A stretch of 35,772 bases of DNA, taken from assembly GCA_019566835.1 (NCBI GenBank), contig GCA_019566835.1_3045.2. One strand, given 5' to 3'. Within the stretch, counting starts at the first letter, position 1; every line of letters starts with the position of its first letter. Shown here in pieces: positions 90 through 30,768 of this stretch. This DNA comes from a phage. Both the position numbers and the translations under genes were made by a program. The notes under the pieces were generated by a model. It was not told the origin of the DNA and did no database searches. It was given only the letters and a program-made list of their open reading frames with translations.

Positions 90-3000
90 ATGGCTACTTT
101 AAAACAAATACAATTTAAAAGAAGCAAAACCGCAGGCGCGCGTCCTGCTGCTTCAGTATTAGCCGAAGGTGAATTGGCTATAAACTTAAAAGATAGAACA
201 ATTTTTACTAAAGATGATTCAGGAAATATCATTGACTTGAGCATTTCCACTGGCGGCAATATCAGTGGAAATATCACTCAAACTGGTGATTATTTACAAA
301 ACGGCACGTATAATCTTAATGGAAACCAGTTTGTTTATGCAGGAAAATACATTGAATTTTTACCTAAAACCGCTGGTAATGGTGCGTGGGCAAATCAACA
401 CCTCAATAAAGCTCCTATCTTTACAGATTTAAGTTCAACTACTTCTGTTTCAGAATATCATCCACTCATTAAGCAGCGTTATAAAGATGGGACTTTTTCT
501 GTTGGTACGTTAGTAAACGAAGGAAGTTTTAAAATTCATTATATTAATGAATCGGGAACTTCAAAATATTGGACATTTCGTAGAGATGGTGGATTTGTTG
601 TTGATACAGGAAGTTTGACAGTAACAGATGGAAATATTTCTGCCTCTGGTAATATTAATTCAGCTACTGGGGTAGTTTCTGCTCCGCAGATTAATACAAA
701 GACTATAGTTTTTGATACAAAAGCGTTCGGACAATATGATTCGCAGTCATTAGTTCAATATGTTTATCCTGGAACAGGTGAAGCAAACGGAATCAATTAC
801 CTTCGCAAATTCCGTGCTAAATCTGGTGGTACAATTTATCATGAATTAGCTTCTGCGCAAACCGGAAAAAGTGATGAACTTTCTTGGTGGACTGGTAATA
901 CAGCGGTTAATAAACAAATGGGCCTTCGCAATGATGGGTCTTTAGTACTACGACGTTCACTTGCAATTGGTACAATTACAACAGATGAAAACATCAATAA
1001 CTACGGTTCCACTGGAGCAATGGGCGAATGTTATATAGTTATTGGTGATGCATCAACAGGTTTATCATACAAAAAAACTGGGGTATATGACTTAGTTGCT
1101 AGTGGTCTTTCTGTAGCATCTATTACTCCTGATAGTTTCCGTAGTACGCGCAAAGCGATTTTTGGACGCTCGGAAGACCAAGGCGGTACGTGGCTTCTTC
1201 CTGGTCAAAACTCATCTCTTCTTTCAGTTCGTACTGAAGCTGACCAAAACAATAATGGAGATGGTCAGACACATATTGGCTATAATAGTAATGGTAAATT
1301 TTATCATTATTTTAGAGGCAGAGGAAGAATGGCCATTGGAATGGCCGAAGGACTTATTGTTGAACCAGGAATTTTAGATATTAAAACTGGTTCAAATACA
1401 TTAAGTTTGCGTGCTGATGGTACCGTCGCTTCTGTTCAAACATTAAAGCTTAATAATGGATTATATTTTAATAGCGATGGAACTAACGCTTCTCTAATTT
1501 TTAAAGCAGCTTCAGGTATTGATGGTACTAAACAAATACTTTGGGAAGGTGGTACTCGTGCTGGGCAGAATAAGAGCTATGTAACTGCTAAAGCTTGGGG
1601 AAATTCATTTAATTCATCTGGCGATCGTAATCGTGAAACGGTTTTTGAAGTATCAGATGGACAAGGATATTATTTTTATGCTCAACGCGTAGCTCCTGCA
1701 CCAGGTTCAACAACTGGTGCAGTTCAATTTAGAGTTGCCGGAGCATTATTAACTTCTGGCGGTATTACATCATCTGGTTCTATTGTTACTGAATCTAGCT
1801 TAGTTGCAAATAATGGATTATCTGTAAATGGACAAGCTAAATTTGGTGGAACAGCAAATGCATTAAGAATTTGGAATGCCGAATATGGCGCCATATTCCG
1901 TCGCTCAGAAACAGCATTGCACATTATTCCTACTCTTAAAGACCAAGGAGAAAATGGTGAAATAGGTAATCTTCGTCCATTGAGCATCTCACTTAACAAC
2001 GGTATGGTTCAAATGCGCCATTCTGTCACGTTAGGTGATGATGGTGCAGGCGGTAATATGGTGACGGTTGATAATGATTCTAAAGTTATAGTAATGACGA
2101 CTAATAGCCGTATTAGTCCTAACTTCCGTATGCAAATTGGACAGTCGTCTTATATTGATGTGGAATGTACTGATGCTGTGAGACCTGCTGGAGCCGGTTC
2201 TTTTGCTTCACAGAATAACGAAAACGTTCGCGCTCCGTTCTATATGAATATTGATAGAACAGATACAAGCACTTATGTTCCTATTGTGAAACAAAGATAC
2301 GTGCAAAATAATAGTTGCTATTCTATTGGTACTTTAATTAATGGTGGTAACTTTAGAGTTCATTATCATGAAGGTGGCGATGGCGGTTCTACAGGCGCAA
2401 TTATAAAAGATTTAGGATGGGAATTTAATAAAAACGGTGATTTTTATTCTCCTGGTAAATTAGGCGCTGGAAATATTAGAATAGGTACTGATGGTAATAT
2501 CACGGGTGGTTCTGGTAACTTTGCTAACTTGAATACAACTTTAAACCGTAAAGTTAATTCTGGTTTTATTACTTATGGAGCAACGGCAGGTTGGTACAAG
2601 TTTGCAACAGTAACAATGCCTCAAGCTACATCAACTGTTTCAATTACAGTCACCGGTGGAAATGGATTTAATTCTGGGTCATTTAATCAGTGTGCAATTT
2701 CTGAAATTGTTCTTCGTACAGGAAACAATACTCCTAAAGGATTAAATGCTGTTCTATATAGAAGAGGACTAAATTCATTTAGAGATATTGCTTGGGTTAA
2801 TACATCTGGTGATACATATGACATTTATGTTAATATGGGAACATATGCTAATCAGTTGATATTTAACTATAGTTCTGTTGATAACGCCACAGTTCAAATT
2901 ATTGGCGCATTCAGCTCAGCTCAAAATCCTGTTGATGCATTGCCAGAAACATATGTTAAAGGTCAGGTAGCAGATGTATTGACTAACTTAGTTGATTCTG

Positions 3001-3953
3001 GAAAAACGAAGCGTTTTGTTGCTGAATCTGAAATAGCTGTTAATAATCAAACTGGATTACGTATTACGAGTAACGGTGATAAATCTGGTTCAAATTCAGT
3101 ATTATTCAGAAATGATGGCGGTAGTTTTTATATTCTTTTAACAGATAAAAACGCAGCAGATGGAAATACGACTGCTACAGAAGGAGATTGGAATGGTAAA
3201 CGTCCTTTCCAAATTAATATGACTTCTGGTGAAGTAACATTTGGAAATAATATTAATATTTCTGGAAACGGAAGCATTAATTGGACAAAAGCCGGAGCAA
3301 ACCCTAGAAATATGAGAATATTTCATGCAGGTGATGCTTCTCGTGGTAACCGTATTGAAATCGCAGATGATACTAACTATATTGCTTACTTTGAAAAAAC
3401 TCCAGGTGGAGCTAACCGCTTTGTAGTAAATAATGCTACTGTAGCTGGTGTTAATCAAATGAATTCATTTGGTATTAACATCAATAACGCGCTTGGTGGA
3501 AATAGTATAACATTTGGTGATAGCGATACTGGTATTAAGCAAAATGGCGATGGATTATTAGACATATATGCGAACAACGTACAAGTATTCCGTTTCCAAA
3601 ACGGTGATTTGTACTCATACAAAAATATAAATGCTCCAAACGTTTATATTCGTTCTGATATTCGTTTAAAATCCAACTTCAAACCTATCGAAAATGCGCT
3701 TGATAAAGTTGAAAAACTTAACGGTGTCATTTACGATAAAGCTGAATATATCGGTGGAGAGGCAATTGAAACTGAAGCGGGTATTGTGGCTCAAACGTTA
3801 CAAGACGTTTTACCAGAAGCTGTCCGTGAAACAGAAGACAGTAAGGGTAATAAAATACTCACTGTTTCTTCTCAAGCCCAGATTGCTCTTCTGGTTGAAG
3901 CTGTGAAAACACTTTCTGCTCGTGTAAAAGAACTTGAATCTAAACTTATGTAA
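90..3953 (+). CDS. 37: Long tail fibre distal subunit gp37, T2-type with C-terminal intramolecular chaperone module
   Basis: 1287-aa ORF. N-terminus MATLKQIQFKRSK...LAEGELAINLKDRTIFTKDDSGNIIDL and internal blocks NAEYGAIFRRSE, AECTDAVRPAGAGSFASQNNE and KQRYVQ match the gp37 signature I recall from T4. Last ~99 aa (SDIRLKSNF...GVIYD...) resemble a self-cleaving fibre chaperone domain. Confidence 0.93.
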   Translation: MATLKQIQFKRSKTAGARPAASVLAEGELAINLKDRTIFTKDDSGNIIDLSISTGGNISGNITQTGDYLQNGTYNLNGNQFVYAGKYIEFLPKTAGNGAWANQHLNKAPIFTDLSSTTSVSEYHPLIKQRYKDGTFSVGTLVNEGSFKIHYINESGTSKYWTFRRDGGFVVDTGSLTVTDGNISASGNINSATGVVSAPQINTKTIVFDTKAFGQYDSQSLVQYVYPGTGEANGINYLRKFRAKSGGTIYHELASAQTGKSDELSWWTGNTAVNKQMGLRNDGSLVLRRSLAIGTITTDENINNYGSTGAMGECYIVIGDASTGLSYKKTGVYDLVASGLSVASITPDSFRSTRKAIFGRSEDQGGTWLLPGQNSSLLSVRTEADQNNNGDGQTHIGYNSNGKFYHYFRGRGRMAIGMAEGLIVEPGILDIKTGSNTLSLRADGTVASVQTLKLNNGLYFNSDGTNASLIFKAASGIDGTKQILWEGGTRAGQNKSYVTAKAWGNSFNSSGDRNRETVFEVSDGQGYYFYAQRVAPAPGSTTGAVQFRVAGALLTSGGITSSGSIVTESSLVANNGLSVNGQAKFGGTANALRIWNAEYGAIFRRSETALHIIPTLKDQGENGEIGNLRPLSISLNNGMVQMRHSVTLGDDGAGGNMVTVDNDSKVIVMTTNSRISPNFRMQIGQSSYIDVECTDAVRPAGAGSFASQNNENVRAPFYMNIDRTDTSTYVPIVKQRYVQNNSCYSIGTLINGGNFRVHYHEGGDGGSTGAIIKDLGWEFNKNGDFYSPGKLGAGNIRIGTDGNITGGSGNFANLNTTLNRKVNSGFITYGATAGWYKFATVTMPQATSTVSITVTGGNGFNSGSFNQCAISEIVLRTGNNTPKGLNAVLYRRGLNSFRDIAWVNTSGDTYDIYVNMGTYANQLIFNYSSVDNATVQIIGAFSSAQNPVDALPETYVKGQVADVLTNLVDSGKTKRFVAESEIAVNNQTGLRITSNGDKSGSNSVLFRNDGGSFYILLTDKNAADGNTTATEGDWNGKRPFQINMTSGEVTFGNNINISGNGSINWTKAGANPRNMRIFHAGDASRGNRIEIADDTNYIAYFEKTPGGANRFVVNNATVAGVNQMNSFGININNALGGNSITFGDSDTGIKQNGDGLLDIYANNVQVFRFQNGDLYSYKNINAPNVYIRSDIRLKSNFKPIENALDKVEKLNGVIYDKAEYIGGEAIETEAGIVAQTLQDVLPEAVRETEDSKGNKILTVSSQAQIALLVEAVKTLSARVKELESKLM

Positions 3954-3954
3954 A

Positions 3955-3972
3955 AGAGGGCTTCGGCCCTCT
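3955..3972 (+). promoter_or_regulatory. C(UUCG)G tetraloop stem-loop in the 37-38 intergenic spacer
   Basis: AGAGGGC-TTCG-GCCCTCT gives a 7-bp stem with a UUCG loop, immediately after the gene 37 stop and before the gene 38 SD. No clean U-tract follows. Confidence 0.45.
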
Positions 3973-3983
3973 AAGGATTTTTA

Positions 3984-4661
3984 ATGGCAATTGTAGGTGT
4001 TCCTGGCTGGATTGGTGAATCTGCCGTGAATGAAACTGGACAACGCTGGATGGATGCTGCAATGAAAGCAGTTCGCGTTTCAGTTCCTGGCTGGATGAGT
4101 TCAATGGCTGGACAATCTAAAGAAGTATATTATAGTGTTGGTGCTAGTAATTCTTATAATAAAGACACACTAATAAATTGGATAAAAGCTCAAGGCAGTA
4201 CTCCTGTTGTTATTACTATTACAGGAAATATTGTTTCTCAATCTACTGGTGTTCCATGCTTAGATTTTCCTAGCTCATTAACTAATGCGTATGTTACCTT
4301 AAATATTAATAGCGGGGTTCATGTATTAGGTCGGGGAGGAAATGGCGGAAGTAACTCTGCTGGTGGAGCAGGAGGAACTGCAATAAATAACGGAATTGGA
4401 ACTCGTTTAAGAATAAACAATAACGGTATTATTGGTGGCGGTGGCGGTGGCGGCGCTGGTGCTAGATACCATCCTTTCCCTCAAATGGATATGATATTTG
4501 GTGGCGGCGGAGGTCGTCCATTTGGCGCTGCTGGCAAATCTTCATATATTCAAGGTGGTACTGGAGGAACTGTTCACTCGGGTGGTGCTGCGGGTAAAGC
4601 TGTTACTGGTAATGCTCCAACTTGGACTAAAGTTGGTACAATATACGGTTCAAGAGTATAA
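3984..4661 (+). CDS. 38: gp38 tail-fibre adhesin, glycine-rich-motif type
   Basis: 225-aa ORF directly downstream of gene 37 with SD AAGGA. C-terminal half holds several glycine-rich motifs (GRGGNGGSNSAGGAGG, GGGGGGGAGA, GGGGGRPFGAAG, GGTGGT, GGAAG) typical of T2/T6-type gp38 adhesins. Confidence 0.8.
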   Translation: MAIVGVPGWIGESAVNETGQRWMDAAMKAVRVSVPGWMSSMAGQSKEVYYSVGASNSYNKDTLINWIKAQGSTPVVITITGNIVSQSTGVPCLDFPSSLTNAYVTLNINSGVHVLGRGGNGGSNSAGGAGGTAINNGIGTRLRINNNGIIGGGGGGGAGARYHPFPQMDMIFGGGGGRPFGAAGKSSYIQGGTGGTVHSGGAAGKAVTGNAPTWTKVGTIYGSRV

Positions 4662-4668
4662 TTTTTGA

Positions 4669-4678
4669 ATAAATATCC
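4669..4678 (+). promoter_or_regulatory. Possible late promoter for t (imperfect TATAAATA)
   Basis: GAATAAATAT lies about 20 nt upstream of the holin start; it matches the T4 late -10 consensus except at the first position. Confidence 0.25.
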
Positions 4679-4693
4679 TTAAAAGGAGGGTCT

Positions 4694-5350
4694 ATGGCAG
4701 CACCTAGAATATCATTTTCGCCCTCTGATATTCTATTTGGTGTTCTAGATCGCTTGTTCAAAGATAACGCTACCGGGAAAGTTCTTGCTTCCCGGGTAGC
4801 TGTCGTAATTCTTTTATTTATGATGGCGATTGTTTGGTATAGGGGAGATAGTTTCTTTGAGTACTATAAGCAATCAAAGTATGAAACATACAGTGAAATT
4901 ATTGAAAAGGAAAGAAATGCACGCTTTGAATCTGTCGCCCTGGAACAACTCCAGATAGTTCATATATCATCTGAGGCAGACTTTAGTGCGGTGTATTCTT
5001 TCCGCCCTAAAAACTTAAACTATTTTGTTGATATTATAGCATACGAAGGAAGATTACCTTCGACAATAACAGAAAAATCACTTGGAGGATATCCTGTTGA
5101 TAAAACTATGGATGAATATACAGTTCATTTAAATGGACGTCATTATTATTCCGATTCAAAATTTGCTTTTTTACCAACTAAAAAGCCTACTCCCGAAATA
5201 AACTACATGTACAGTTGTCCATATTTTAATTTGGATAATATCTATGCTGGAACGATAACCATGTACTGGTATAGAAATGATCATATAAGTAATGACCGCC
5301 TTGAATCAATATGTGCTCAGGCGGCCAGAATATTAGGAAGGGCTAAATAA
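4694..5350 (+). CDS. t: Holin T
   Basis: 218-aa ORF with strong SD AAGGAGGG. Sequence MAAPRISFSPSDILFGVLDRLFKDN... with one transmembrane segment and a large periplasmic domain matches T4 holin as I recall it, same length. Confidence 0.96.
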   Translation: MAAPRISFSPSDILFGVLDRLFKDNATGKVLASRVAVVILLFMMAIVWYRGDSFFEYYKQSKYETYSEIIEKERNARFESVALEQLQIVHISSEADFSAVYSFRPKNLNYFVDIIAYEGRLPSTITEKSLGGYPVDKTMDEYTVHLNGRHYYSDSKFAFLPTKKPTPEINYMYSCPYFNLDNIYAGTITMYWYRNDHISNDRLESICAQAARILGRAK

Positions 5351-5623
5351 TTATTTGTTCGTATACATCTCTAGATATCGATATACACCCTCAAAACCCT
5401 CGTTGAATTCGTCGATGAGGGTTTTCTTATCTTCTTGAGTTAATTCAGAAACAATTTTACGGAATGAATTCTGATTTAATTTTCTACCTTCATGCGTTAC
5501 TCCAATCTCATTCAGAAATGCAATAAAATTAGCACGATTCTCAACAATATCTTCTCTGGAAAATTTAATCAAAATAGACGCAACAGTAATAATTTCACGA
5601 ACTGTATCAATGTTTTTATTCAT
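5351..5623 (-). CDS. asiA: Anti-sigma-70 factor AsiA
   Basis: 90-aa ORF, MNKNIDTVREIITVASILIKFSREDIVENRANFIAFLNEIGVTHEGRKL..., convergent with t; length and sequence match T4 AsiA. Confidence 0.95.
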   Translation of the reverse strand: MNKNIDTVREIITVASILIKFSREDIVENRANFIAFLNEIGVTHEGRKLNQNSFRKIVSELTQEDKKTLIDEFNEGFEGVYRYLEMYTNK

Positions 5624-7443: not shown

Positions 7444-8079
7444 TCACAGTTCAGATGCTACAGTGATTACTGCTTCAATGTTTTCTGCCGAGCGTTTAAT
7501 GTCAAGATACACATTACCGTTTTTAGCGATTTTACAAGACATTCCGATATCAGTAAATTTCTGAATATGATGTTCCATCATTTTGTATCCAAAAATTCGC
7601 ATATTTCCATTATTGTTAATTTCAAAATTGCGAATTCCGTGGGTGCGTTTTTCTAAAATAGCGAGATAGTTACTGCGATAAGTTTCAACCTTTTTAAGAA
7701 CAAATCCATTTTCATCTAAAAGTTTTAACATAAAGTCTTTATCTTCTTCCATATCAGAAGTAATCTCGCGAGCTTTACGAGTTGCTCGTTTTTTCAGCAG
7801 TTCAGGAGCGTTTTCCTGTGCATATAAAGTTGCTGCGTTTGAAATAATATCTTGCGCTTCGCCTGTGATGATTAATCCATCACCTGATTTCTCTACCAGG
7901 CCTTTTTTAATCAATACCCCAATATTACTATTAACTACTGCGTTACCTAAATCTGGATGCACCTCACGAACTTCTGCGGCTGTAATGAAATCTTTCTTAG
8001 CAATAGTAATTAAAATCGCAGCAGTTTTTTCATTCAGAACATCGTTAGAAGCTTTGATGATGTAAGTTACTTTAGACAT
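7444..8079 (-). CDS. motA: Middle transcription activator MotA
   Basis: 211-aa ORF, MSKVTYIIKASNDVLNEKTAAILITIAKKDFITAAEVREV...; length and sequence match T4 MotA. Confidence 0.95.
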   Translation of the reverse strand: MSKVTYIIKASNDVLNEKTAAILITIAKKDFITAAEVREVHPDLGNAVVNSNIGVLIKKGLVEKSGDGLIITGEAQDIISNAATLYAQENAPELLKKRATRKAREITSDMEEDKDFMLKLLDENGFVLKKVETYRSNYLAILEKRTHGIRNFEINNNGNMRIFGYKMMEHHIQKFTDIGMSCKIAKNGNVYLDIKRSAENIEAVITVASEL

Positions 8080-11082: not shown

Positions 11083-11279
11083 CATTTTACACCATTCCAA
11101 ATTGTTTCAACTACGGATTTTAAACCATTTTGATGAATATCCATTCCGACTACCGCCATCAAATAGATTCCAACTACAACTGAACCTAAGGCAAAAATCA
11201 GCATGAAAATGAATAAAGCCGGAAAAATATTATCGAAAAACCATTCAATAAATGTAAAAGCATTGCGTTTACGCTTCAT
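11082..11279 (-). CDS. Small membrane protein (65 aa)
   Basis: Start taken at MKRKRNAF with SD GAGGAAAAT; one predicted transmembrane helix. Confidence 0.55.
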   Translation of the reverse strand: MKRKRNAFTFIEWFFDNIFPALFIFMLIFALGSVVVGIYLMAVVGMDIHQNGLKSVVETIWNGVK

Positions 11280-11647: not shown

Positions 11648-11907
11648 AGCTCAATCTCAGCGATTTTCATTTCATTACTATTAATAGCCGCTTTAAGACT
11701 ATCTGAAAGAATTACATTCCAGTGGTCATTCATATGACCATTAACTAAGCGTGTAATTTCTTCAGGAGTTGAAAAATAAGGCTGATCAGACTCCCAATGC
11801 GATAATCCTAAGCGAGTATAAATCATGCCTTCATCATCGCTAGAATATTCAACTGACACAAACTCATCAGTTATTTTATGTTTAGCGTAATAAAATTTAA
11901 ATTTCAT
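11644..11907 (-). CDS. Hypothetical protein (87 aa)
   Basis: Start taken at MKFKFYYAKHK with SD GGAGAA, directly downstream of an early promoter. Confidence 0.6.
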   Translation of the reverse strand: MKFKFYYAKHKITDEFVSVEYSSDDEGMIYTRLGLSHWESDQPYFSTPEEITRLVNGHMNDHWNVILSDSLKAAINSNEMKIAEIEL

Positions 11908-11941
11908 TTTATTCTCCAAATCCGTATCAGTTGATAGTTGT

Positions 11942-11971
11942 ATAGTACCACGGTCCTTGTGGCATGTAAAC
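11942..11971 (-). promoter_or_regulatory. T4-type early promoter
   Basis: Minus strand reads GTTTAC, 18 nt, GTGG-TACTAT; overlaps the 3' end of denB. Confidence 0.6.
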
Positions 11972-11987
11972 CATTTTATGAAATTTT

Positions 11988-12545
11988 TTAAATGGAAAGA
12001 TACCATCCGTTGTAGTTGCTTTTTCTTACAACCTTACGAAGGTCTTCTCTATCACCGATGAACTTCGGAGTGTACTGGATGACACCTGGATGAATTTCTT
12101 TAGTGTTGAATATAATTATACAGTCAGCGACTTGATGATTTAGAATGGGCCCTAGATTTATTCCAGAACCGTATGGATACTCTCCGCTGTATCCTGTCGT
12201 TACTGAAATCCATCGAGAGTCAGTTTGGTGTGTTTTAACTTCTACCCGAAGCCCGCAGTATTTTGGATGTGCTAAAACATCCCATGCATATGTATACGGA
12301 TCATCGACGTCTTCTTGACCTTTATTAACATACCCACTTAACCAATCTGCTACAACATACTCAGCATACACTGCGATACGGCATCTTTCGATAACTTCTG
12401 CTTTATCCTGGTTCGGGTTTTGTTTTAAAGAGTATCTTGCTGTATCAGCAATTTTGACCTTCATTTCACTAGTCAAGTCACTGTTCGATAGGGTAAATGT
12501 CGGAATCTGAAATAGTCTCTGTAAACCCGGATTCGTTTTCTGCAT
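11988..12545 (-). CDS. denB: Endonuclease IV DenB
   Basis: 185-aa ORF in the T4 denB position between ndd and rIIB, same length; SD AAGGAAAG. Confidence 0.75.
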   Translation of the reverse strand: MQKTNPGLQRLFQIPTFTLSNSDLTSEMKVKIADTARYSLKQNPNQDKAEVIERCRIAVYAEYVVADWLSGYVNKGQEDVDDPYTYAWDVLAHPKYCGLRVEVKTHQTDSRWISVTTGYSGEYPYGSGINLGPILNHQVADCIIIFNTKEIHPGVIQYTPKFIGDREDLRKVVRKSNYNGWYLSI

Positions 12546-16232: not shown

Positions 16233-18049
16233 TACTGGCTCATCCATTCTTTACGAAGGTCAGCATTATCTCCCATGAGCATTTCAAAAAGCTCTTTCCA
16301 GTTCTCAGGAAGTTTAACAACATCATATACTGGATTTTGAATCATTTCACGATATTCAGATTTTTCCAAAGAGCCAAGTCCTTTAATATAACGGATGCTA
16401 TGTTTAGGTAGAGCATCTTTGGCACTCTCATATTCAGCGACTGTATAAAACCATTCTTGTTTTTTACCGACCTGAGCGATGATTACAGGAGTTTTGACAA
16501 AGCGAATTCGTCCTTGCTCAAACAATTCTGGCCAATTACTAAAAAATCCGAGCAGAGAAGGATAAATGCTTCCTAGACCATCATGGTCAGCATCAGTCAT
16601 AATAGCAATATTGCGATAATTCATGTTTTCAGCTTTTTCACCAAGAACTAATCCAGTGATTGCGCAAATATCAAATAGTTCTTTGTTTTTAAGCATATCT
16701 GCATAAGACATACCCCAACTGTTGAGAACTTTACCACGCAATGGATAACCACCATGAAGTTCTTTATCACGAACATCAATAAGATATCCGATAGCAGAAT
16801 CACCCTCAGTCAAGAAAAGAGTAGTATCAGCATCTTTACCGCACAGATTAGCTTTAATATGTTTATGAACCTTTGCCTTAGAAGCCTTTTTAGCTGCTTT
16901 AGTTTCAGCTGCTTTTTCTGCTGCCAATTTACGAGCTAGTGCAGCTTCAATAATTGGCATTAAAATTGCTTCATTATTTAAAATAGCGCGTGAAATCTTT
17001 TTAGCGTCAAGTTGAATATGACTACGGATTTCACCAAATGGAGAAGTCAAACGCTCTTTAGTTTGAGAATCAAATCGCATGTTTTTCATATCACGAACAA
17101 ACATAACGATAGTCAAACATTCTTTAACGCGTGCTTTAGTTACATCAATTTTGAACTTACGTTTGATTTGTGGAATAAGGTCTTCACAAATATCATCCAT
17201 AACACAGTCAATGTGATGGCCACCATTCTTAGTATGAATGTTATTGACGTATGTTAATTGACGAAATCCATCCGGTGAACGACCAACCGCAATAGAACAA
17301 TTTTCTTGTTCTTGAACAATAGCATGTTCATCATACTGTAGTGCATATTTCTTAAAATTGCCCTGAACCTTTTTACCATTAAAGGTAAATTGAATATCAG
17401 GATAAACAACAGCAAGTGTCTGGAGACGATCTAGTGTAATGTCAAGATAAACTTGGGACAGCTCATTAGTTTCAAATGACATAAAATCTGGAATGAAAGT
17501 AACACGAGTTCCTTTCCATTTTCCAGGAATAGTTTCCCAGGATTTATTTTCCATGCCATTTGAACAACGAACTACAATATTATTTTGACCATCGCCAGTT
17601 TCACCGACAAACATCACAGAAAAAATGTTAGTTAAACTAGAACCAACACCATTCATACCACCGGTGACACGTTCTTTATCATCACCAAAGTTACCACCCG
17701 CTTTTGGAATAGTCCAAGCAGCAACTGGACCAGGAATTTCTTCACCGGTAGGTGTTTTAACCATCGCTTGTGGAATACCACGACCGTTATCTTCAACTGT
17801 TACTTGATTGTTTTTAATAGTAACATTAATTTTATTTGCGAATTTAAACTTAGTACGAATACCTTCATCTACTGAGTTATCGATAATTTCATCAATAAGC
17901 TTAACAAGACCAGGTACATACTGAACACTTTCCCATTTACCAAACAGAAAGCGCTCATGCATTTCATTAGCAGAAGAGCCAATGTACATGCCACTACGCT
18001 TTTTGATATGTTCAATATCGCTCAGAATTTTAATTTCATTCTTAATCAT
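16232..18049 (-). CDS. 39: DNA topoisomerase II large subunit (GyrB-like) gp39, uninterrupted
   Basis: 605 aa from the ATG at 18049 (SD GAGGATAAG; the ORF-track start at 18052 is GTG). N-terminal GHKL ATPase motifs (DEIIDNSVDEG, EDNGRGIP) and a C-terminal Toprim-like region sit in one frame. Confidence 0.92.
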   Translation of the reverse strand: MIKNEIKILSDIEHIKKRSGMYIGSSANEMHERFLFGKWESVQYVPGLVKLIDEIIDNSVDEGIRTKFKFANKINVTIKNNQVTVEDNGRGIPQAMVKTPTGEEIPGPVAAWTIPKAGGNFGDDKERVTGGMNGVGSSLTNIFSVMFVGETGDGQNNIVVRCSNGMENKSWETIPGKWKGTRVTFIPDFMSFETNELSQVYLDITLDRLQTLAVVYPDIQFTFNGKKVQGNFKKYALQYDEHAIVQEQENCSIAVGRSPDGFRQLTYVNNIHTKNGGHHIDCVMDDICEDLIPQIKRKFKIDVTKARVKECLTIVMFVRDMKNMRFDSQTKERLTSPFGEIRSHIQLDAKKISRAILNNEAILMPIIEAALARKLAAEKAAETKAAKKASKAKVHKHIKANLCGKDADTTLFLTEGDSAIGYLIDVRDKELHGGYPLRGKVLNSWGMSYADMLKNKELFDICAITGLVLGEKAENMNYRNIAIMTDADHDGLGSIYPSLLGFFSNWPELFEQGRIRFVKTPVIIAQVGKKQEWFYTVAEYESAKDALPKHSIRYIKGLGSLEKSEYREMIQNPVYDVVKLPENWKELFEMLMGDNADLRKEWMSQ

Positions 18050-23375: not shown

Positions 23376-24695
23376 TCACACATAAAACACATCATAACGA
23401 CCGCGGGTGACACCAACATAAAGAAGTTGTTGAGCTAGTTCAGCATCTGCATAATGAATACAAGGCGTATAAATGAAAGCACGGTCTACAGACATACCCT
23501 GAGCTTTATGGAATGTTGATGCAGGAAGTGCTTTCACTTTACTGAACTGTGATTTAGCATCCCAAAAATCACTCCATGGAGCTTTTCCGCCTTTGTTCCA
23601 ATTTTTATAAGTTTCTGCCGTTTTACCTAAAAACAGGTTAAACTTATATAGCTCTTCATCAGATGAAATTATTTTAATCTTTTCACGATAATATTCATCA
23701 TCGCCGTAAGTTTCTACTGTTAAATCCCAATGACGAATTAAGTATTCTCCAGGAACACCACGAGCTTTAACAAACGTCGATGTATACTCTGCTTCTATAA
23801 TACGAACTAATTGCCCATTATTAAAAATAATTTCTGATACAGGCTTTCCATCAATTTTATATGTTTTAATTAATGGTTCCTGCATTACAATAATTTCACC
23901 GACAATAAAATCTTTATCAGTTTCAAAAATCTTTTTACGAATAATGCTATTTAACTTATCAACAGATTTATTCGTAAATGCCATCACACGATTTTCAAAC
24001 AAATCATCTAATGATTTAACAATTGAAAAATAATTTACCATAAAATCGCGTAAAGCGGTATCACCAGTAAATCCACGTACTCCATGCCCGTCAACAACTT
24101 TATCATAAATCCACTTACCGTTACGAACGTCAGTAGCTACATCAATAATAGGAGCATTACTGCGTTTAACTTCAGTGAGTTCACACTGATAAAAATCTTT
24201 ATGTGTAAAGAATGGACTGATATAAGCAGTATTTTCTCCTGGGTCAACAGGTCTAATTTGCTTATTATCCCCTATTCCAATTATAGTACACCACGGCGGG
24301 ATAGTTGAAAGCAGAATTTTAAATAGCTTTCTATCATACATTGACACTTCATCGCAGATTAATACCCTGCATTTAGCTAAATCTGGTACTTCTTTTTGTT
24401 CAAAAAGAACGTTTTCTTCATATGTTACCGGGTTAATTTTAAGAATACTGTGAATAGTACTCGCTTCTTTCCCCGACAGTTTTGAAAGAATCTTTTTAGC
24501 TGCATGAGTAGGAGCTGCTAAAATAATACCAGTTTCACCCGTAGATATTAAAGCTTCAATGATGAACTTAGTAAGAGTAGTCTTACCAGTACCAGCAGGT
24601 CCATTAATAGTTACATGATGTTTCTTTTCTTTAATAGCCCTCATAACAATGTTAAAGGCATTTTTCTGGCCTTCGGTCAAATCATCAAATGTCAT
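23376..24695 (-). CDS. dda: Dda DNA helicase (SF1B)
   Basis: 439-aa ORF with Walker A GPAGTGKT and DE box LICDEVSM; T4 Dda length and position. Confidence 0.93.
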   Translation of the reverse strand: MTFDDLTEGQKNAFNIVMRAIKEKKHHVTINGPAGTGKTTLTKFIIEALISTGETGIILAAPTHAAKKILSKLSGKEASTIHSILKINPVTYEENVLFEQKEVPDLAKCRVLICDEVSMYDRKLFKILLSTIPPWCTIIGIGDNKQIRPVDPGENTAYISPFFTHKDFYQCELTEVKRSNAPIIDVATDVRNGKWIYDKVVDGHGVRGFTGDTALRDFMVNYFSIVKSLDDLFENRVMAFTNKSVDKLNSIIRKKIFETDKDFIVGEIIVMQEPLIKTYKIDGKPVSEIIFNNGQLVRIIEAEYTSTFVKARGVPGEYLIRHWDLTVETYGDDEYYREKIKIISSDEELYKFNLFLGKTAETYKNWNKGGKAPWSDFWDAKSQFSKVKALPASTFHKAQGMSVDRAFIYTPCIHYADAELAQQLLYVGVTRGRYDVFYV

Positions 24696-25003
24696 CGTAA
24701 ATTCCCTGCAATTGGTATACTAACAATACGCCCAGTATCTAAAATTCGCTGATATAATCTTTGTGTGTCTACATCAGGCTTAACATGTTTAACTTCTATT
24801 TTATTAAACCAAAATTTACGTGGAGTCTCAACTAATCTTGGAATTCCCATACCTAAAGCTAGTTTATATTGGTCTTTGAGAGTAGTAAAAACTCTATCAG
24901 CAATCTCTCTTTCAAAAAACACAGCAGGACGATGTTCATCAAGTGGAACTGGCGCCGTAAATCCGTCTTTGTCTCGGTAAACTATCGCATATACATAAAC
25001 CAT
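24692..25003 (-). CDS. Hypothetical protein (dda.1 position)
   Basis: 103-aa ORF with a 4-nt overlap onto dda. Confidence 0.65.
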   Translation of the reverse strand: MVYVYAIVYRDKDGFTAPVPLDEHRPAVFFEREIADRVFTTLKDQYKLALGMGIPRLVETPRKFWFNKIEVKHVKPDVDTQRLYQRILDTGRIVSIPIAGNLR

Positions 25004-25004
25004 A

Positions 25005-25760
25005 TTATCCTCGGATAAGTTTAAAAATTGAACAATTTAGCGGGTATCCTCTTTTCAGTTTAAGTTTATCAATAAAAGACAAGTTTTGATACCGCTCTAC
25101 ACCTTGAATAATTTTATCACACATATCATATTGCATTTCTGCTTCTGACAACTTTTTCACAATTTTCCAATCCGAGCCTTTAAGAAGAACGTTCAGTTTA
25201 ACAACTTCAGCGCCTTCTGCTATGCGAGAACCATCAATACGAGCTTTAAGTGCTATAATCCTTAGCTTAATGTCAGAGGTCTGTTTTGATTTAGAAAGCT
25301 GAGAAATGTGTTCAATTCGGTTTTCACGTTTTTTCTGTATAGCTTTAATTTGATTATAAGTCTTTTTGATTTTAGCCCATTTCTTTTCATCTAAATTTAG
25401 TTTATGAACTTTTTTCGCAGATGAACGACCAATTCGCAAAGCAAATAAATCCCGTTTTTCAATCAACTCTTCTAAAGTATAATCAGAACGAAATGTATTA
25501 TACTTTTTCTTTACTGCAATAACATTCCCTTTAATGTATCCAATGTTATTATCAAAACGTTCTAATGATAATTTCTCTCCTTCAATACGATTATCAAAAG
25601 GTTCTCCCGAGTAAGCGCAAACTTTTTGGTCTAAAATGTTCTTAATGTAATTGAAGTCTAAGTTAAAATCTTTAGAACGTCTTTTTGCAGATGCCTGAGT
25701 GTGCTCTAAACGACGTTTAATTTTACGAATTTGATTATTAGACATATTATGCAGTTTCAT
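25005..25760 (-). CDS. srd: Srd-like protein (similarity to rpoD)
   Basis: 251-aa basic ORF between dda.1 and modA, where T4 carries srd; assignment is by position and size. Confidence 0.55.
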   Translation of the reverse strand: MKLHNMSNNQIRKIKRRLEHTQASAKRRSKDFNLDFNYIKNILDQKVCAYSGEPFDNRIEGEKLSLERFDNNIGYIKGNVIAVKKKYNTFRSDYTLEELIEKRDLFALRIGRSSAKKVHKLNLDEKKWAKIKKTYNQIKAIQKKRENRIEHISQLSKSKQTSDIKLRIIALKARIDGSRIAEGAEVVKLNVLLKGSDWKIVKKLSEAEMQYDMCDKIIQGVERYQNLSFIDKLKLKRGYPLNCSIFKLIRG

Positions 25761-25795
25761 ATTTTTCTCACATCTTACGGACGATTGACTACTAT

Positions 25796-25825
25796 ACTAT
25801 AACATTTTTACCTTGGCTTGTAAAC
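25796..25825 (-). promoter_or_regulatory. T4-type early promoter upstream of srd
   Basis: Minus strand reads GTTTAC, 18 nt, TATAGT. Confidence 0.55.
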
Positions 25826-25837
25826 AATTTTATGAAA

Positions 25838-25864
25838 AATGCTTCAAAAATTTCATGGTATAAT
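25838..25864 (+). promoter_or_regulatory. Consensus MotA-dependent middle promoter on the plus strand, antisense to modA
   Basis: Plus strand reads AATGCTTCA (MotA box), 12 nt, TGG-TATAAT (extended -10), pointing into the 3' end of modA. Confidence 0.4.
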
Positions 25865-25881
25865 GAATCTAAGTCCTTCCA

Positions 25882-26484
25882 TTATAGATTAAATCCTTCA
25901 AAATCAAGAGTATAGATAGTGTATGTTGAATACTTTTTATACTCATATCTATCTGCAATTCTAAATACACTTCCAGCTGGTATCATTACTTCCTGTTCAT
26001 CTGAAACTAATTCCATATTACGATAGCGATGGCTATCTGGAAATTTAAAACTCGGACTATATTCTTTACAACGTAGAGCTTTTATAGCATACTCCTGGAA
26101 ATTGAATACCATAGGAGCTTTGAATTCAAAAATAACTTGTGTGTTATACTCTAAACCGGAAGCAAAATGTAGAGCTATATTTTTATCATATGAAGCTGAT
26201 ACGACTTTATCAAATGTAATAATATCAATTCCTTGATTTAACACCTGCTTAGTCTCAGCTGGAACACCTCTCCAAAGAGGTTTATCGTTTGGAACCAAAC
26301 GAGATTTGATTATTTCATTTAACCAAGTATGGTCATCTGGTTTGTTGGTAATACAATGAATTAAAAGTTCAATTTCAGATAAATTAAACCCTTCAGAAAG
26401 TAATTCTTCACGAATAGAAGCACGCACCGATGCATCCATTGATTTTATTTTAAAATCTTTTAGTTGCATTACTGAGTATTTCAT
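25882..26484 (-). CDS. modA: ADP-ribosyltransferase ModA
   Basis: 200-aa ORF with an ADP-ribosyltransferase layout (LWRG, SAS, EQEVMIP catalytic block), in tandem with a 207-aa paralog. The modA versus modB label follows my recalled T4 lengths. Confidence 0.65.
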   Translation of the reverse strand: MKYSVMQLKDFKIKSMDASVRASIREELLSEGFNLSEIELLIHCITNKPDDHTWLNEIIKSRLVPNDKPLWRGVPAETKQVLNQGIDIITFDKVVSASYDKNIALHFASGLEYNTQVIFEFKAPMVFNFQEYAIKALRCKEYSPSFKFPDSHRYRNMELVSDEQEVMIPAGSVFRIADRYEYKKYSTYTIYTLDFEGFNL

Positions 26485-27104
26485 TCAACTACCTCAATAT
26501 CATAAACTTTAAATGTTCCAAATGAATCGTGTAATTTTTCTTTTGAAATAGAAGTTATTCTATACTTTCCAATTGGAATCATCCATTCTTGTTCATGCAC
26601 AATCATCATTAAGTTATCAGTACGCTCTGAATCTAGCCCATCAGTATCTTCATACGTGTACTTAAACTCAGTATTAGGAGAAGAAAGTATAATATCGCTG
26701 ATATGGTCAGAGTAATTAAAAGCTTTATCAGTTTTTAAACGAAGTATTGTTTCAGTGAAATATTCAGCATAAGAAAAAGAACACGCTGTATGCAAACTAG
26801 TAGTAAATGAATCTACCCTGTTCGTTGAAAACACTTCTCCAACTTGTAAATCTTTAATAAGTTCTTTTGTCGATTTTGATATACCACGATATAACTGATA
26901 AGGCGATTTAGTTAAATGCTTTTTAATGATTTTATTCAACTGTCTGTGAAGAGCTTCATTCTTTTTGGCTTCCATACATTGCCAAAGAACAGACTGCTCA
27001 AAGTCAGTAAATTTTTCACAGACTTTTTTATACATATCATATTGAAAATCAACGCTTTCAGCTTTTATAGATAACTGTTCAACATCTGCAGGATTAATAA
27101 TCAT
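26481..27104 (-). CDS. modB: ADP-ribosyltransferase ModB
   Basis: 207-aa ORF with LYRG, STN and EQEWMIP motifs; paralog of the adjacent gene. Confidence 0.65.
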   Translation of the reverse strand: MIINPADVEQLSIKAESVDFQYDMYKKVCEKFTDFEQSVLWQCMEAKKNEALHRQLNKIIKKHLTKSPYQLYRGISKSTKELIKDLQVGEVFSTNRVDSFTTSLHTACSFSYAEYFTETILRLKTDKAFNYSDHISDIILSSPNTEFKYTYEDTDGLDSERTDNLMMIVHEQEWMIPIGKYRITSISKEKLHDSFGTFKVYDIEVVE

Positions 27105-27130
27105 GATAGCCTCCGTATACTTCAGAAGCT

Positions 27131-27160
27131 ATCATATCATCGTTAGAAAGGAAAGTAAAC
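27131..27160 (-). promoter_or_regulatory. T4-type early promoter upstream of modB
   Basis: Minus strand reads GTTTAC, 18 nt, TATGAT, then SD GGAGG. Confidence 0.55.
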
Positions 27161-27171
27161 AACTTTTTGAA

Positions 27172-27354
27172 TTATTTTGCCCAGGGAGCCCAAGGCGGAG
27201 GGTCAAGATGGTATGAAGCTAGTTCTTCTAGAAGAGCATCTGGGGCTTCAATTCCATAATTCTGTAATACTATACGGTACTCTTTCTTATAATCACTAGA
27301 ATCATTCTGGTTATTCGTAGAATGATTATCTTCTAACATCTCAAATAAATCCAT
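27172..27354 (-). CDS. Hypothetical protein (60 aa)
   Basis: Acidic ORF ending PPPWAPWAK. Confidence 0.5.
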   Translation of the reverse strand: MDLFEMLEDNHSTNNQNDSSDYKKEYRIVLQNYGIEAPDALLEELASYHLDPPPWAPWAK

Positions 27355-27362
27355 ATTAATTC

Positions 27363-27833
27363 CTAGCGATAAAAACCAAAGTGACGATTAGCTTCAATGA
27401 TCTTTCTTTCTTCTTCGGACATTCTCCAGCGTAGTCCAACATCAAAATGAGCCCAGACCATCCTAACAAATGCATTTATATCTTTAATATCTTCAATAAT
27501 GAATGTTTTACTTTTAGAAGGTTGACTCGCTAATTTAACTTTATCGTCTTCAAACATGTCAAAAAGACCATATTCATGAGCTCTTTTATAGCCTTTAATA
27601 GTTAAAGCTTCAGAAGAAGAAAATGGTGAATCTGTATTCTGCAAAATATCTTCAGTATGCTTTATAATTAGAATAACATTTTCTGGATATTTTCTTTCTT
27701 TTATATCTTTAATTAAAATATCCGGATTTTCTGCTAAAGGAATAATTAACGAGCATTTTTTATCAAGTGTATTTACTGATTTACCTTCTTTAGACATAAA
27801 TTCTATTGAATATAATTTTGCTACTTCAATCAT
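27363..27833 (-). CDS. Hypothetical protein (156 aa)
   Basis: ORF tiled with neighbouring genes. Confidence 0.65.
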   Translation of the reverse strand: MIEVAKLYSIEFMSKEGKSVNTLDKKCSLIIPLAENPDILIKDIKERKYPENVILIIKHTEDILQNTDSPFSSSEALTIKGYKRAHEYGLFDMFEDDKVKLASQPSKSKTFIIEDIKDINAFVRMVWAHFDVGLRWRMSEEERKIIEANRHFGFYR

Positions 27834-29787: not shown

Positions 29788-29978
29788 TTTGAATGCTCTA
29801 TAATTAATTTTAAAGCTTCTTCACTGACAAAAATTTCGTCAGGACCTTCTATAACTTCAACCATACGAAGTTGATTAGTTAAGAGCTCACATACGAGCTC
29901 CTTGTTATAATCTTTAAATAGCTGGTCAATACGTTTCTTATGGGCTTTCTTAAGCTGACGCTTATTTAAACGAGCCAT
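29784..29978 (-). CDS. Hypothetical protein (64 aa; soc.2-type ORF)
   Basis: Small basic ORF overlapping both neighbours by 1-4 nt. Confidence 0.55.
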   Translation of the reverse strand: MARLNKRQLKKAHKKRIDQLFKDYNKELVCELLTNQLRMVEVIEGPDEIFVSEEALKLIIEHSK

Positions 29979-30496
29979 TAATAACCTCGGTCTTGACGAG
30001 CGAAGTTTTCAGCATTTTTCAGGTAATAAAGTTTAAAGATTTCTTCAGCCGACATTCCAAGAGCAATAAATTTATTCATGAAAAAGTGAAATTGGTCAAT
30101 CAGTTCAAATTTAATTTCAAGCTGATCTTCAGGAGATAAGTCTTGAATTTTCTTGGATTGCATTTCAGAATAACGTTTCTTCCAAGGTTTCCATACAGCA
30201 GAAGCTTCTTTTTCACCATTACTCATACCACCAAGAGAAGTATATAGCTCGCGAGTTTCGTCTGCGATATAATCGTCTTGGTTTCGCAGCCAAGCAAGAA
30301 CTTCTCCTGCAGTTTCAAGTGAATCAGGATGACGATTTGTTTCTGGTTTATCATTAGCCAAACGAATCTGTAAATGCCGCTGCATGTCAAGCATAACCTG
30401 CAATGGGTCAATACTGTGCATAATATACTCAGCATATGCACGATTTGCTTTATCAACACCTTCGATCAAATGAGCACATTCATTAAAGTGAGCCAT
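29978..30496 (-). CDS. 56: dCTP pyrophosphatase gp56 (MazG-like)
   Basis: Start taken at MAHFNECAHL with SD AAAGGAAAAATA, giving 172 aa; the ORF-track N-terminal extension is hydrophobic and lacks an SD. Confidence 0.8.
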   Translation of the reverse strand: MAHFNECAHLIEGVDKANRAYAEYIMHSIDPLQVMLDMQRHLQIRLANDKPETNRHPDSLETAGEVLAWLRNQDDYIADETRELYTSLGGMSNGEKEASAVWKPWKKRYSEMQSKKIQDLSPEDQLEIKFELIDQFHFFMNKFIALGMSAEEIFKLYYLKNAENFARQDRGY

Positions 30497-30530
30497 TATT
30501 TTTCCTTTCAATTCATGGGTTAGTAGATTA

Positions 30531-30556
30531 ATTATACAATAAATATATAAAGCAAT
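30531..30556 (-). promoter_or_regulatory. MotA-dependent middle promoter for gene 56
   Basis: Minus strand reads ATTGCTTTA (perfect MotA box), 11 nt, TATAAT, about 30 nt upstream of the gene 56 start. Confidence 0.55.
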
Positions 30557-30567
30557 AAGGAGGACAT

Positions 30568-30768
30568 ATGGTACAAAAATTAATGGCACTTGTTAATGCC
30601 ATAAAAGGTAATAAAAAACGTATAGCTTTTACTATTTCTGCTATGGTAGGAATTTTACTCTGGAACTTTATTTTATCACCAATTGCAATTGCGCATGGTG
30701 TTAATATTCCAGTAGTTACTCTTGATACATTTGTAGATTTAGCATTTGCTTTAGTTGGGTTGATTTAA
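30568..30768 (+). CDS. Plus-strand small membrane protein (66 aa) in the 56-61 gap
   Basis: Consensus SD AAGGAGG 4 nt before the ATG; hydrophobic product; fills the gap exactly, with its stop overlapping the gene 61 stop. Confidence 0.5.
   Translation: MVQKLMALVNAIKGNKKRIAFTISAMVGILLWNFILSPIAIAHGVNIPVVTLDTFVDLAFALVGLI

Follow-up and report, generated by a model that had tools for sequence, protein, structure and literature searches.

A predicted MotA-type middle promoter pointing antisense into modA is conserved across MotA-encoding T4-like phages

The main finding of this work is a predicted middle promoter in the spacer between modA and srd of a T4-like phage, which is directed antisense into the 3' end of modA and recurs at the same place in genera whose spacers are otherwise unrelated in sequence. 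The element is very probably a functional promoter site. For the whole statement, namely that it is a genuine MotA/AsiA-dependent middle promoter that would fire into modA and serve there as a brake, the sequence data leave us about evenly divided. The stretch of DNA analysed, hereafter the window, is 35,772 nucleotides long and comes from a phage of the Tequatrovirus (T4-like) type, as the 1-kb stretch round the site matches 503 phage records at 90-98% identity, every one of them T4-like, with AR1 as the best match (98% identity). The features of the window on which the argument depends are the following.

5351-5623, minus strand: asiA, co-activator and anti-sigma factor (Pfam AsiA, E = 1e-42)
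7444-8079, minus strand: motA, activator needed by middle promoters (Pfam MotA_activ and MotCF, E = 5e-61 and 9e-67)
23376-24695, minus strand: dda
24692-25003, minus strand: dda.1
25005-25760, minus strand: srd
25796-25824, minus strand: srd early promoter (-35 TTTACA at 25824-25819, 17 nt, TG-TATAGT at 25801-25796)
25838-25846, plus strand: MotA box AATGCTTCA, fitting the consensus and centred near -30 of the predicted start
25847-25858, plus strand: 12-nt spacer AAAATTTCATGG, whose final bases TGG (25856-25858) form the TGn of an extended -10
25859-25864, plus strand: -10 hexamer TATAAT
25865-25873, plus strand: discriminator and predicted start region GAATCT-A-AG, with the predicted +1 an A at 25871
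25882-26484, minus strand: modA, RNA polymerase ADP-ribosyltransferase (stop codon 25882-25884)
26481-27104, minus strand: modB, the upstream gene in the same early unit as modA

From 5351 onwards the ORFs of the window lie on the minus strand, and plus-strand tail-fibre and holin (late) genes occupy 90-5350. The first-pass annotation had placed all genes on the minus strand for about 20 kb on both sides of the site, which stands on the low side (20.4 kb) and not on the high side, where the window extends for only 9.9 kb. Some details of the genes were also recorded. The srd product of the window phage and of AR1 has 251 aa, against 248 aa in T4, with a slightly longer N-terminus (MKLHNMSNNQ) and a short indel at the gene start (25750-25760). 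In Shigella phage Sf25 (locus L019, 577-1023) modA is annotated with 447 nt instead of the 603 nt found elsewhere and may be a truncated or frameshifted copy. A 14-bp stem-loop on the minus strand (27102-27136) covers the ribosome-binding site and start codon of modB (GATAGCTTC...GGAGGCTATC ATG) and is a possible translation-initiation structure.

The published middle-promoter consensus reads (a/t)(a/t)(a/t)TGCTT(t/c)A, 12 +/- 1 bp and TAtaaT, often with TGn (PMC2988021). With its GCTT centre near -30, AATGCTTCA agrees with this consensus, and it is followed after 12 nt by TATAAT with a preceding TGn, so that the perfect MotA box, 12-nt spacer and TGG-TATAAT read on the plus strand by the first-pass annotation are borne out by the sequence. 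Both activators are encoded by the window itself, Pfam having found the MotA and AsiA genes, and the MotA of the window is 99% identical to annotated MotA. The predicted start at 25871, placed at the usual 7-nt distance after the -10, lies 11 nt past the modA stop codon and points into modA. The pattern TGCTTYA-N11-13-TATAAT occurs twice in the window, where 0.02 copies are expected from shuffled sequence. The other copy, also a perfect consensus (TATTGCTTTA, 11 nt, TATAAT), is on the minus strand at about 30531-30557, in sense orientation, either inside the ORF 29978-30589 or a short way upstream of it; it may be a known T4 promoter of the 56/69 region.

Within Tequatrovirus the element was found in 28 of 28 sequences, in which the box and the -10 are invariant except for T/C at the degenerate position of the box, and the spacer is always 12 nt long with two variable bases. 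The stretch that separates the box from the srd -35 varies in these sequences by indels of 0-2 nt, which fall directly before the box. Variable columns are fewer in the modA-side half of the modA-srd spacer (25838-25881; 4/44) than in the srd-side half (26/77). Within Tequatrovirus, coding DNA on the flanks (about 13% variable) is conserved at least as well as the 27-nt element, so this genus cannot decide the matter by itself and the case rests on cross-genus data. The same observation is what speaks for a chance match in AT-rich intergenic DNA, kept only by recent common descent, an explanation that we nevertheless regard as highly improbable, since only 0.02 matches are expected per window and the element is retained, as described below, across otherwise unalignable spacers.

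Dhakavirus (Bp7), Gelderlandvirus (Melville), Mosigvirus (moskry, RB69), Karamvirus (KMB17) and a Klebsiella group (Roth66) share the gene order modA-srd-dda.1-dda with the window. Identity to the ModA of the window is only 25-36% for the ModA proteins of Bp7, Melville, moskry, KMB17 and Roth66. In all five of these phages the modA-srd spacer carries TGCTTT on the antisense strand and TATAAT at the right distance from it. Scanning IMG/VR with Srd as the anchor yielded 45 T4-like loci, which represent about a dozen lineages and take in Moonvirus, Tegunavirus (TG1, fHe-Yen9-01), EcS1, Serratia phage CBH8 and a Proteus phage. In 41 of them the antisense strand carries NGCTT-N13-15-TATAAT directly behind the modA-like gene, and nowhere else in the 139 kb of srd-anchored loci did either strand match this pattern. 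Gaprivervirus has a one-base variant, CGCTT, together with TGTG-TATAAT. When the matches were reduced to 25 distinct orthologous promoters, the spacers were 12 or 13 nt long and unrelated in sequence between genera. The box was held as T-GCTT-Y-W (first core T in 23/25, GCTT in 25/25) and TATAAT was identical in every MotA-positive lineage sampled; both GCTT and TATAAT were demanded by the search pattern, and the result for them is that every MotA-positive locus satisfies it. Beyond the box and the hexamer, G was held at -13 and -14, G at -6 and T at -3 were invariant, +1 was A in 22 and G in 3, and +3 was G in 23 of the 25.

The occurrence of the element also follows that of its activator. 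All full-length motif-positive contigs yielded a MotA gene as well, and motA and asiA were both confirmed in VR7 (Gaprivervirus). The motif-negative srd loci were those of Krischvirus (ECD7, GEC-3S) and one locus without modA upstream. Krischvirus retains a mod gene followed by srd, with only a TTGACA-type promoter and no element in the spacer, and neither MotA nor AsiA was found in its t-to-gene-52 region. RB49, the Krischvirus type phage, has been reported to be without motA and without middle promoters (PMC1524935). The middle-promoter identity proposed by the first-pass annotation is thereby strongly supported on comparative grounds, the element being kept in all sampled MotA lineages and missing, together with MotA, in Krischvirus. 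Loss exactly where MotA is absent also counts against the chance reading, which the cross-genus sequences already contradict.

In T4 an equivalent element is found at the same place (AATGCTTTA, 12 nt, TATAAT; about 11,864-11,890 of AF158101, predicted start near 11,897), with a box even closer to the consensus than that of the window. It has no entry in the table of 58 T4 middle promoters identified by experiment that was published in 2010. These promoters came partly from consensus-guided searches, and the nearest of them are Pdda.1 at 11138 and P56/69 at 16813. The srd-modA spacer of RB69 maps to 11932-12202 and takes in a predicted plus-strand promoter, 'Pm:12081' (12081-12122), which is an HMM output line with a score of 7.9 (Nolan et al., 2006, Additional file 4). 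This is the orthologous element, listed there without comment on orientation, conservation or function. Antisense transcripts as such have precedents in T4. A T4 dRNA-seq preprint (10.1101/2024.04.04.588121) gives 150 start sites, 22 of them antisense, and antisense transcription has likewise been described for gene 32, a different locus (Belin et al., 1987). The T4 middle promoters PuvsX and PrIIB2, which are MotA/AsiA-dependent and work by sigma appropriation, resemble the window element in their consensus box, 12-nt spacer and perfect sigma70 -10 with TGn, and in that MotA and AsiA are supplied by the same phage. Unlike them, the window element opposes all surrounding genes, has no gene downstream and stands outside the table of 58. 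The predicted antisense element is in this sense an unmapped addition to the T4 promoter class, with an unusual orientation and unusually deep conservation.

Consensus quality alone is no guarantee of middle-promoter activity, and silent consensus matches exist in T4. The Nivinskas laboratory has scanned T4 for matches to the consensus, and Stoskiene and co-workers are reported to have met, in 2007, with some good consensus matches that were inactive. Together with the missing entry in the mapped T4 list, this would agree with a conserved but non-productive site, at which MotA and polymerase dock as a roadblock to read-through, or at which a sequence of the gene strand is kept for another reason. 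The extra invariant bases at -6, -3 and +3, which exceed the usual promoter consensus, point the same way. We consider such a site unlikely, because the MotA box, a spacing of 12-13 nt and a perfect TATAAT all persist through a complete change of spacer sequence, which is the signature of a promoter and not of an RNA or of a site for a single protein. It is also disfavoured by the failure to find a hairpin, an ORF or an Rfam family there on either strand. No conserved hairpin was seen at the element, and a search of 25000-27500 against Rfam gave no family at E <= 1. On the gene strand, a mini-ORF that overlaps the spacer (MKFLKHFS) was rejected as a candidate, as its start is lost in several phages (ATG to ACG) and it has a non-synonymous change in T4. 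A modA terminator in the spacer was likewise discarded, the only candidate being a weak AT hairpin that is not conserved.

The predicted transcript itself seems to encode nothing. No credible plus-strand ORF was found downstream, the first ATG ORFs having 13 and 15 aa, and a downstream gene on this strand was rejected since the ORFs present are of only 13-60 aa, with no ribosome-binding site and no conservation across genera. The first-pass annotation was therefore right that no plus-strand ORF follows. About 400 nt into the predicted antisense RNA, at 26266-26302 within modA, there are two neighbouring hairpins of 6-7 bp that either strand could form and that are weakly terminator-like on the plus strand. 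Their sequence is the same in 27 Tequatrovirus sequences, apart from an AA/TT change confined to a loop. They were not accepted as an antisense terminator, because hairpins that lie in conserved codons make this invariance uninformative. Given that no conserved ORF, Rfam family or convincing terminator was found, any function would likely rest on the act of antisense transcription itself or on simple complementarity. The RNA might end by Rho or by collision. Its first 200 nt have 31% G+C and are C-rich with negative G skew, which ranges from -0.05 to -0.31 over the same length in nearly all lineages.

This composition bears on a further explanation, in which the transcript would be a primer RNA whose persistent R-loop starts leading-strand synthesis and adds to origin activity in the oriA region. 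The T4 origins oriF (uvsY) and oriG (gene 34) each consist of a middle-mode promoter, whose transcript likewise need not encode anything, and a downstream unwinding element, and oriA, which has been drawn near soc, is described as relying on a MotA-dependent promoter close by (PMC3016281). The transcript would head towards soc, which in relatives is 1-3 kb away. The origin oriA is classically tied to the gene 69 promoter (P56/69), whose start at 16813 is about 5 kb from the start near 11,897 predicted in T4, and the site does not coincide with any mapped T4 origin. Unlike at oriF and oriG, no distinct unwinding element is evident, and a predicted RNA that is C-rich, not G-rich, in nearly all lineages is unfavourable to stable R-loops. 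We hold a priming role to be very unlikely.

The position of the element relative to its neighbours was compared among the loci, and three layouts of the spacer were distinguished. At the srd site, an early promoter is annotated in three GenBank relatives. In the window this promoter and the antisense promoter stand back-to-back, with predicted starts about 82 bp apart, and the same layout, with starts 67-84 bp apart, is seen in Tequatrovirus, Mosigvirus, Dhakavirus, Gaprivervirus and others. In Karamvirus, Gelderlandvirus, Moonvirus and CBH8 the two promoters are face-to-face, with predicted starts within 1 nt of each other. In the face-to-face loci L029, L031, L058, L061 and L129 the two -10 hexamers are symmetric round the start. 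In EcS1, Jiaodavirus and Tegunavirus no recognisable early promoter is present, and the box is 14-17 nt from the next start codon. In addition, L052 (957-1148) and L069 have a 63-aa gene, followed by the srd early promoter, between the element and srd; the distance from the element to the modA stop is still 22 nt, and that to the srd early promoter about 270 bp. The ribosome-binding site of this 63-aa gene comes directly after the MotA box, and the two loci represent one lineage. In all three layouts the modA-like gene is faced by a predicted start that lies 5-40 nt beyond its stop codon and points into it. Since this position is kept across the layouts and despite a gene insertion, the constant feature is a start 5-40 nt past the ADP-ribosyltransferase stop. 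The antisense aim at modA that had been proposed for the window promoter fits this geometry.

It had also been noted that the element overlaps the UP region of the srd early promoter. For the window phage this is correct, as the -40 to -60 zone of that promoter (about 25829-25849) overlaps the MotA box, which is 13 bp from the srd -35. It does not hold elsewhere, where the element is downstream of the early promoter or the spacer has no early promoter. An srd UP element was rejected as the sole explanation of the conservation, because TATAAT falls at about -70 to -76 in the window, outside -40 to -60, and because in other genera the element is downstream of, or far from, the early promoter. 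A separate observation concerns the srd leader, where a GTCCGTAAGA motif is kept in Tequatrovirus, Dhakavirus, Mosigvirus and Gaprivervirus. The window has its copy (CGTCCGTAAGA) on the minus strand at 25773-25783, within the 5' UTR of srd, and further copies were noted in L028, L030, L039 and L032. In the Klebsiella group it falls inside the spacer of the antisense promoter (GTCTTACGGACGG). This motif may be a leader RNA element.

The proximity of the two promoters allows for local promoter competition as the main job of the element: polymerase carrying MotA and AsiA would block the srd early promoter and flip the direction of transcription at the early-to-middle switch, and the antisense RNA would be a by-product. 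The place of the window MotA box inside the -40 to -60 zone is consistent with this, and in Karamvirus, Gelderlandvirus, Moonvirus and L061 predicted starts within 1 nt of each other leave no room for joint occupancy. As a main job it is nevertheless rather unlikely. In L052 and L069 the srd early promoter has moved about 270 bp away while the element has stayed by the modA stop, the spacers of EcS1, Jiaodavirus and Tegunavirus contain no recognisable early promoter to compete with, and AsiA already disables -35-dependent early promoters (PMC2988021). Where the antisense promoter and the srd early promoter adjoin or overlap, the two can probably not be occupied at the same time, and competition with the abutting promoter is likely an added effect in most lineages.

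As to the brake on modA, the product of this gene is highly toxic, and the phage has use for it only for a short time, until ribosylation of the polymerase alpha subunits is complete; how T4 early expression as a whole is shut off is still unexplained (PMC2988021). We propose that 1-3 min after infection AsiA and MotA would remodel sigma70 polymerase, which could then start on the plus strand at about 25871 and meet the early modB-modA unit head-on. For the antisense transcript, the 3' end of modA would come first, and modB too would be crossed if it continued. This untranslated RNA could pair with the mRNA, and head-on collisions would add to the effect, so that synthesis of the toxic Mod enzymes would be shut down and early read-through into srd stopped. 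A regulatory effect of this kind on ModA is a plausible inference. Cis-antisense RNAs and convergent-promoter interference in bacteria and phages, for instance in units of the lambda PR/PRE type, combine head-on transcription with full complementarity to the target mRNA. The mode proposed here would be the same, except that the switch would be made by sigma appropriation and not by a repressor.

The several genera in which an early and a MotA promoter face each other round one shared start point suggest, tentatively, a more specific reading of the antisense brake. The locus would be a conserved direction-reversing switch, at which sigma appropriation stops the early promoter and redirects the same DNA to making antisense RNA against a toxic operon. 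This is possible, although we would not call it probable. If true, it would offer a concrete, locus-specific answer to how T4 early genes are shut off, and the element might be one among a wider set of antisense middle promoters. Should the element prove silent in T4, its strict cross-genus conservation would itself require explanation. T4 is the reference system for phage transcription control, and a conserved backward MotA promoter at its toxic ADP-ribosylating genes would bring antisense transcription into the early-to-middle switch.
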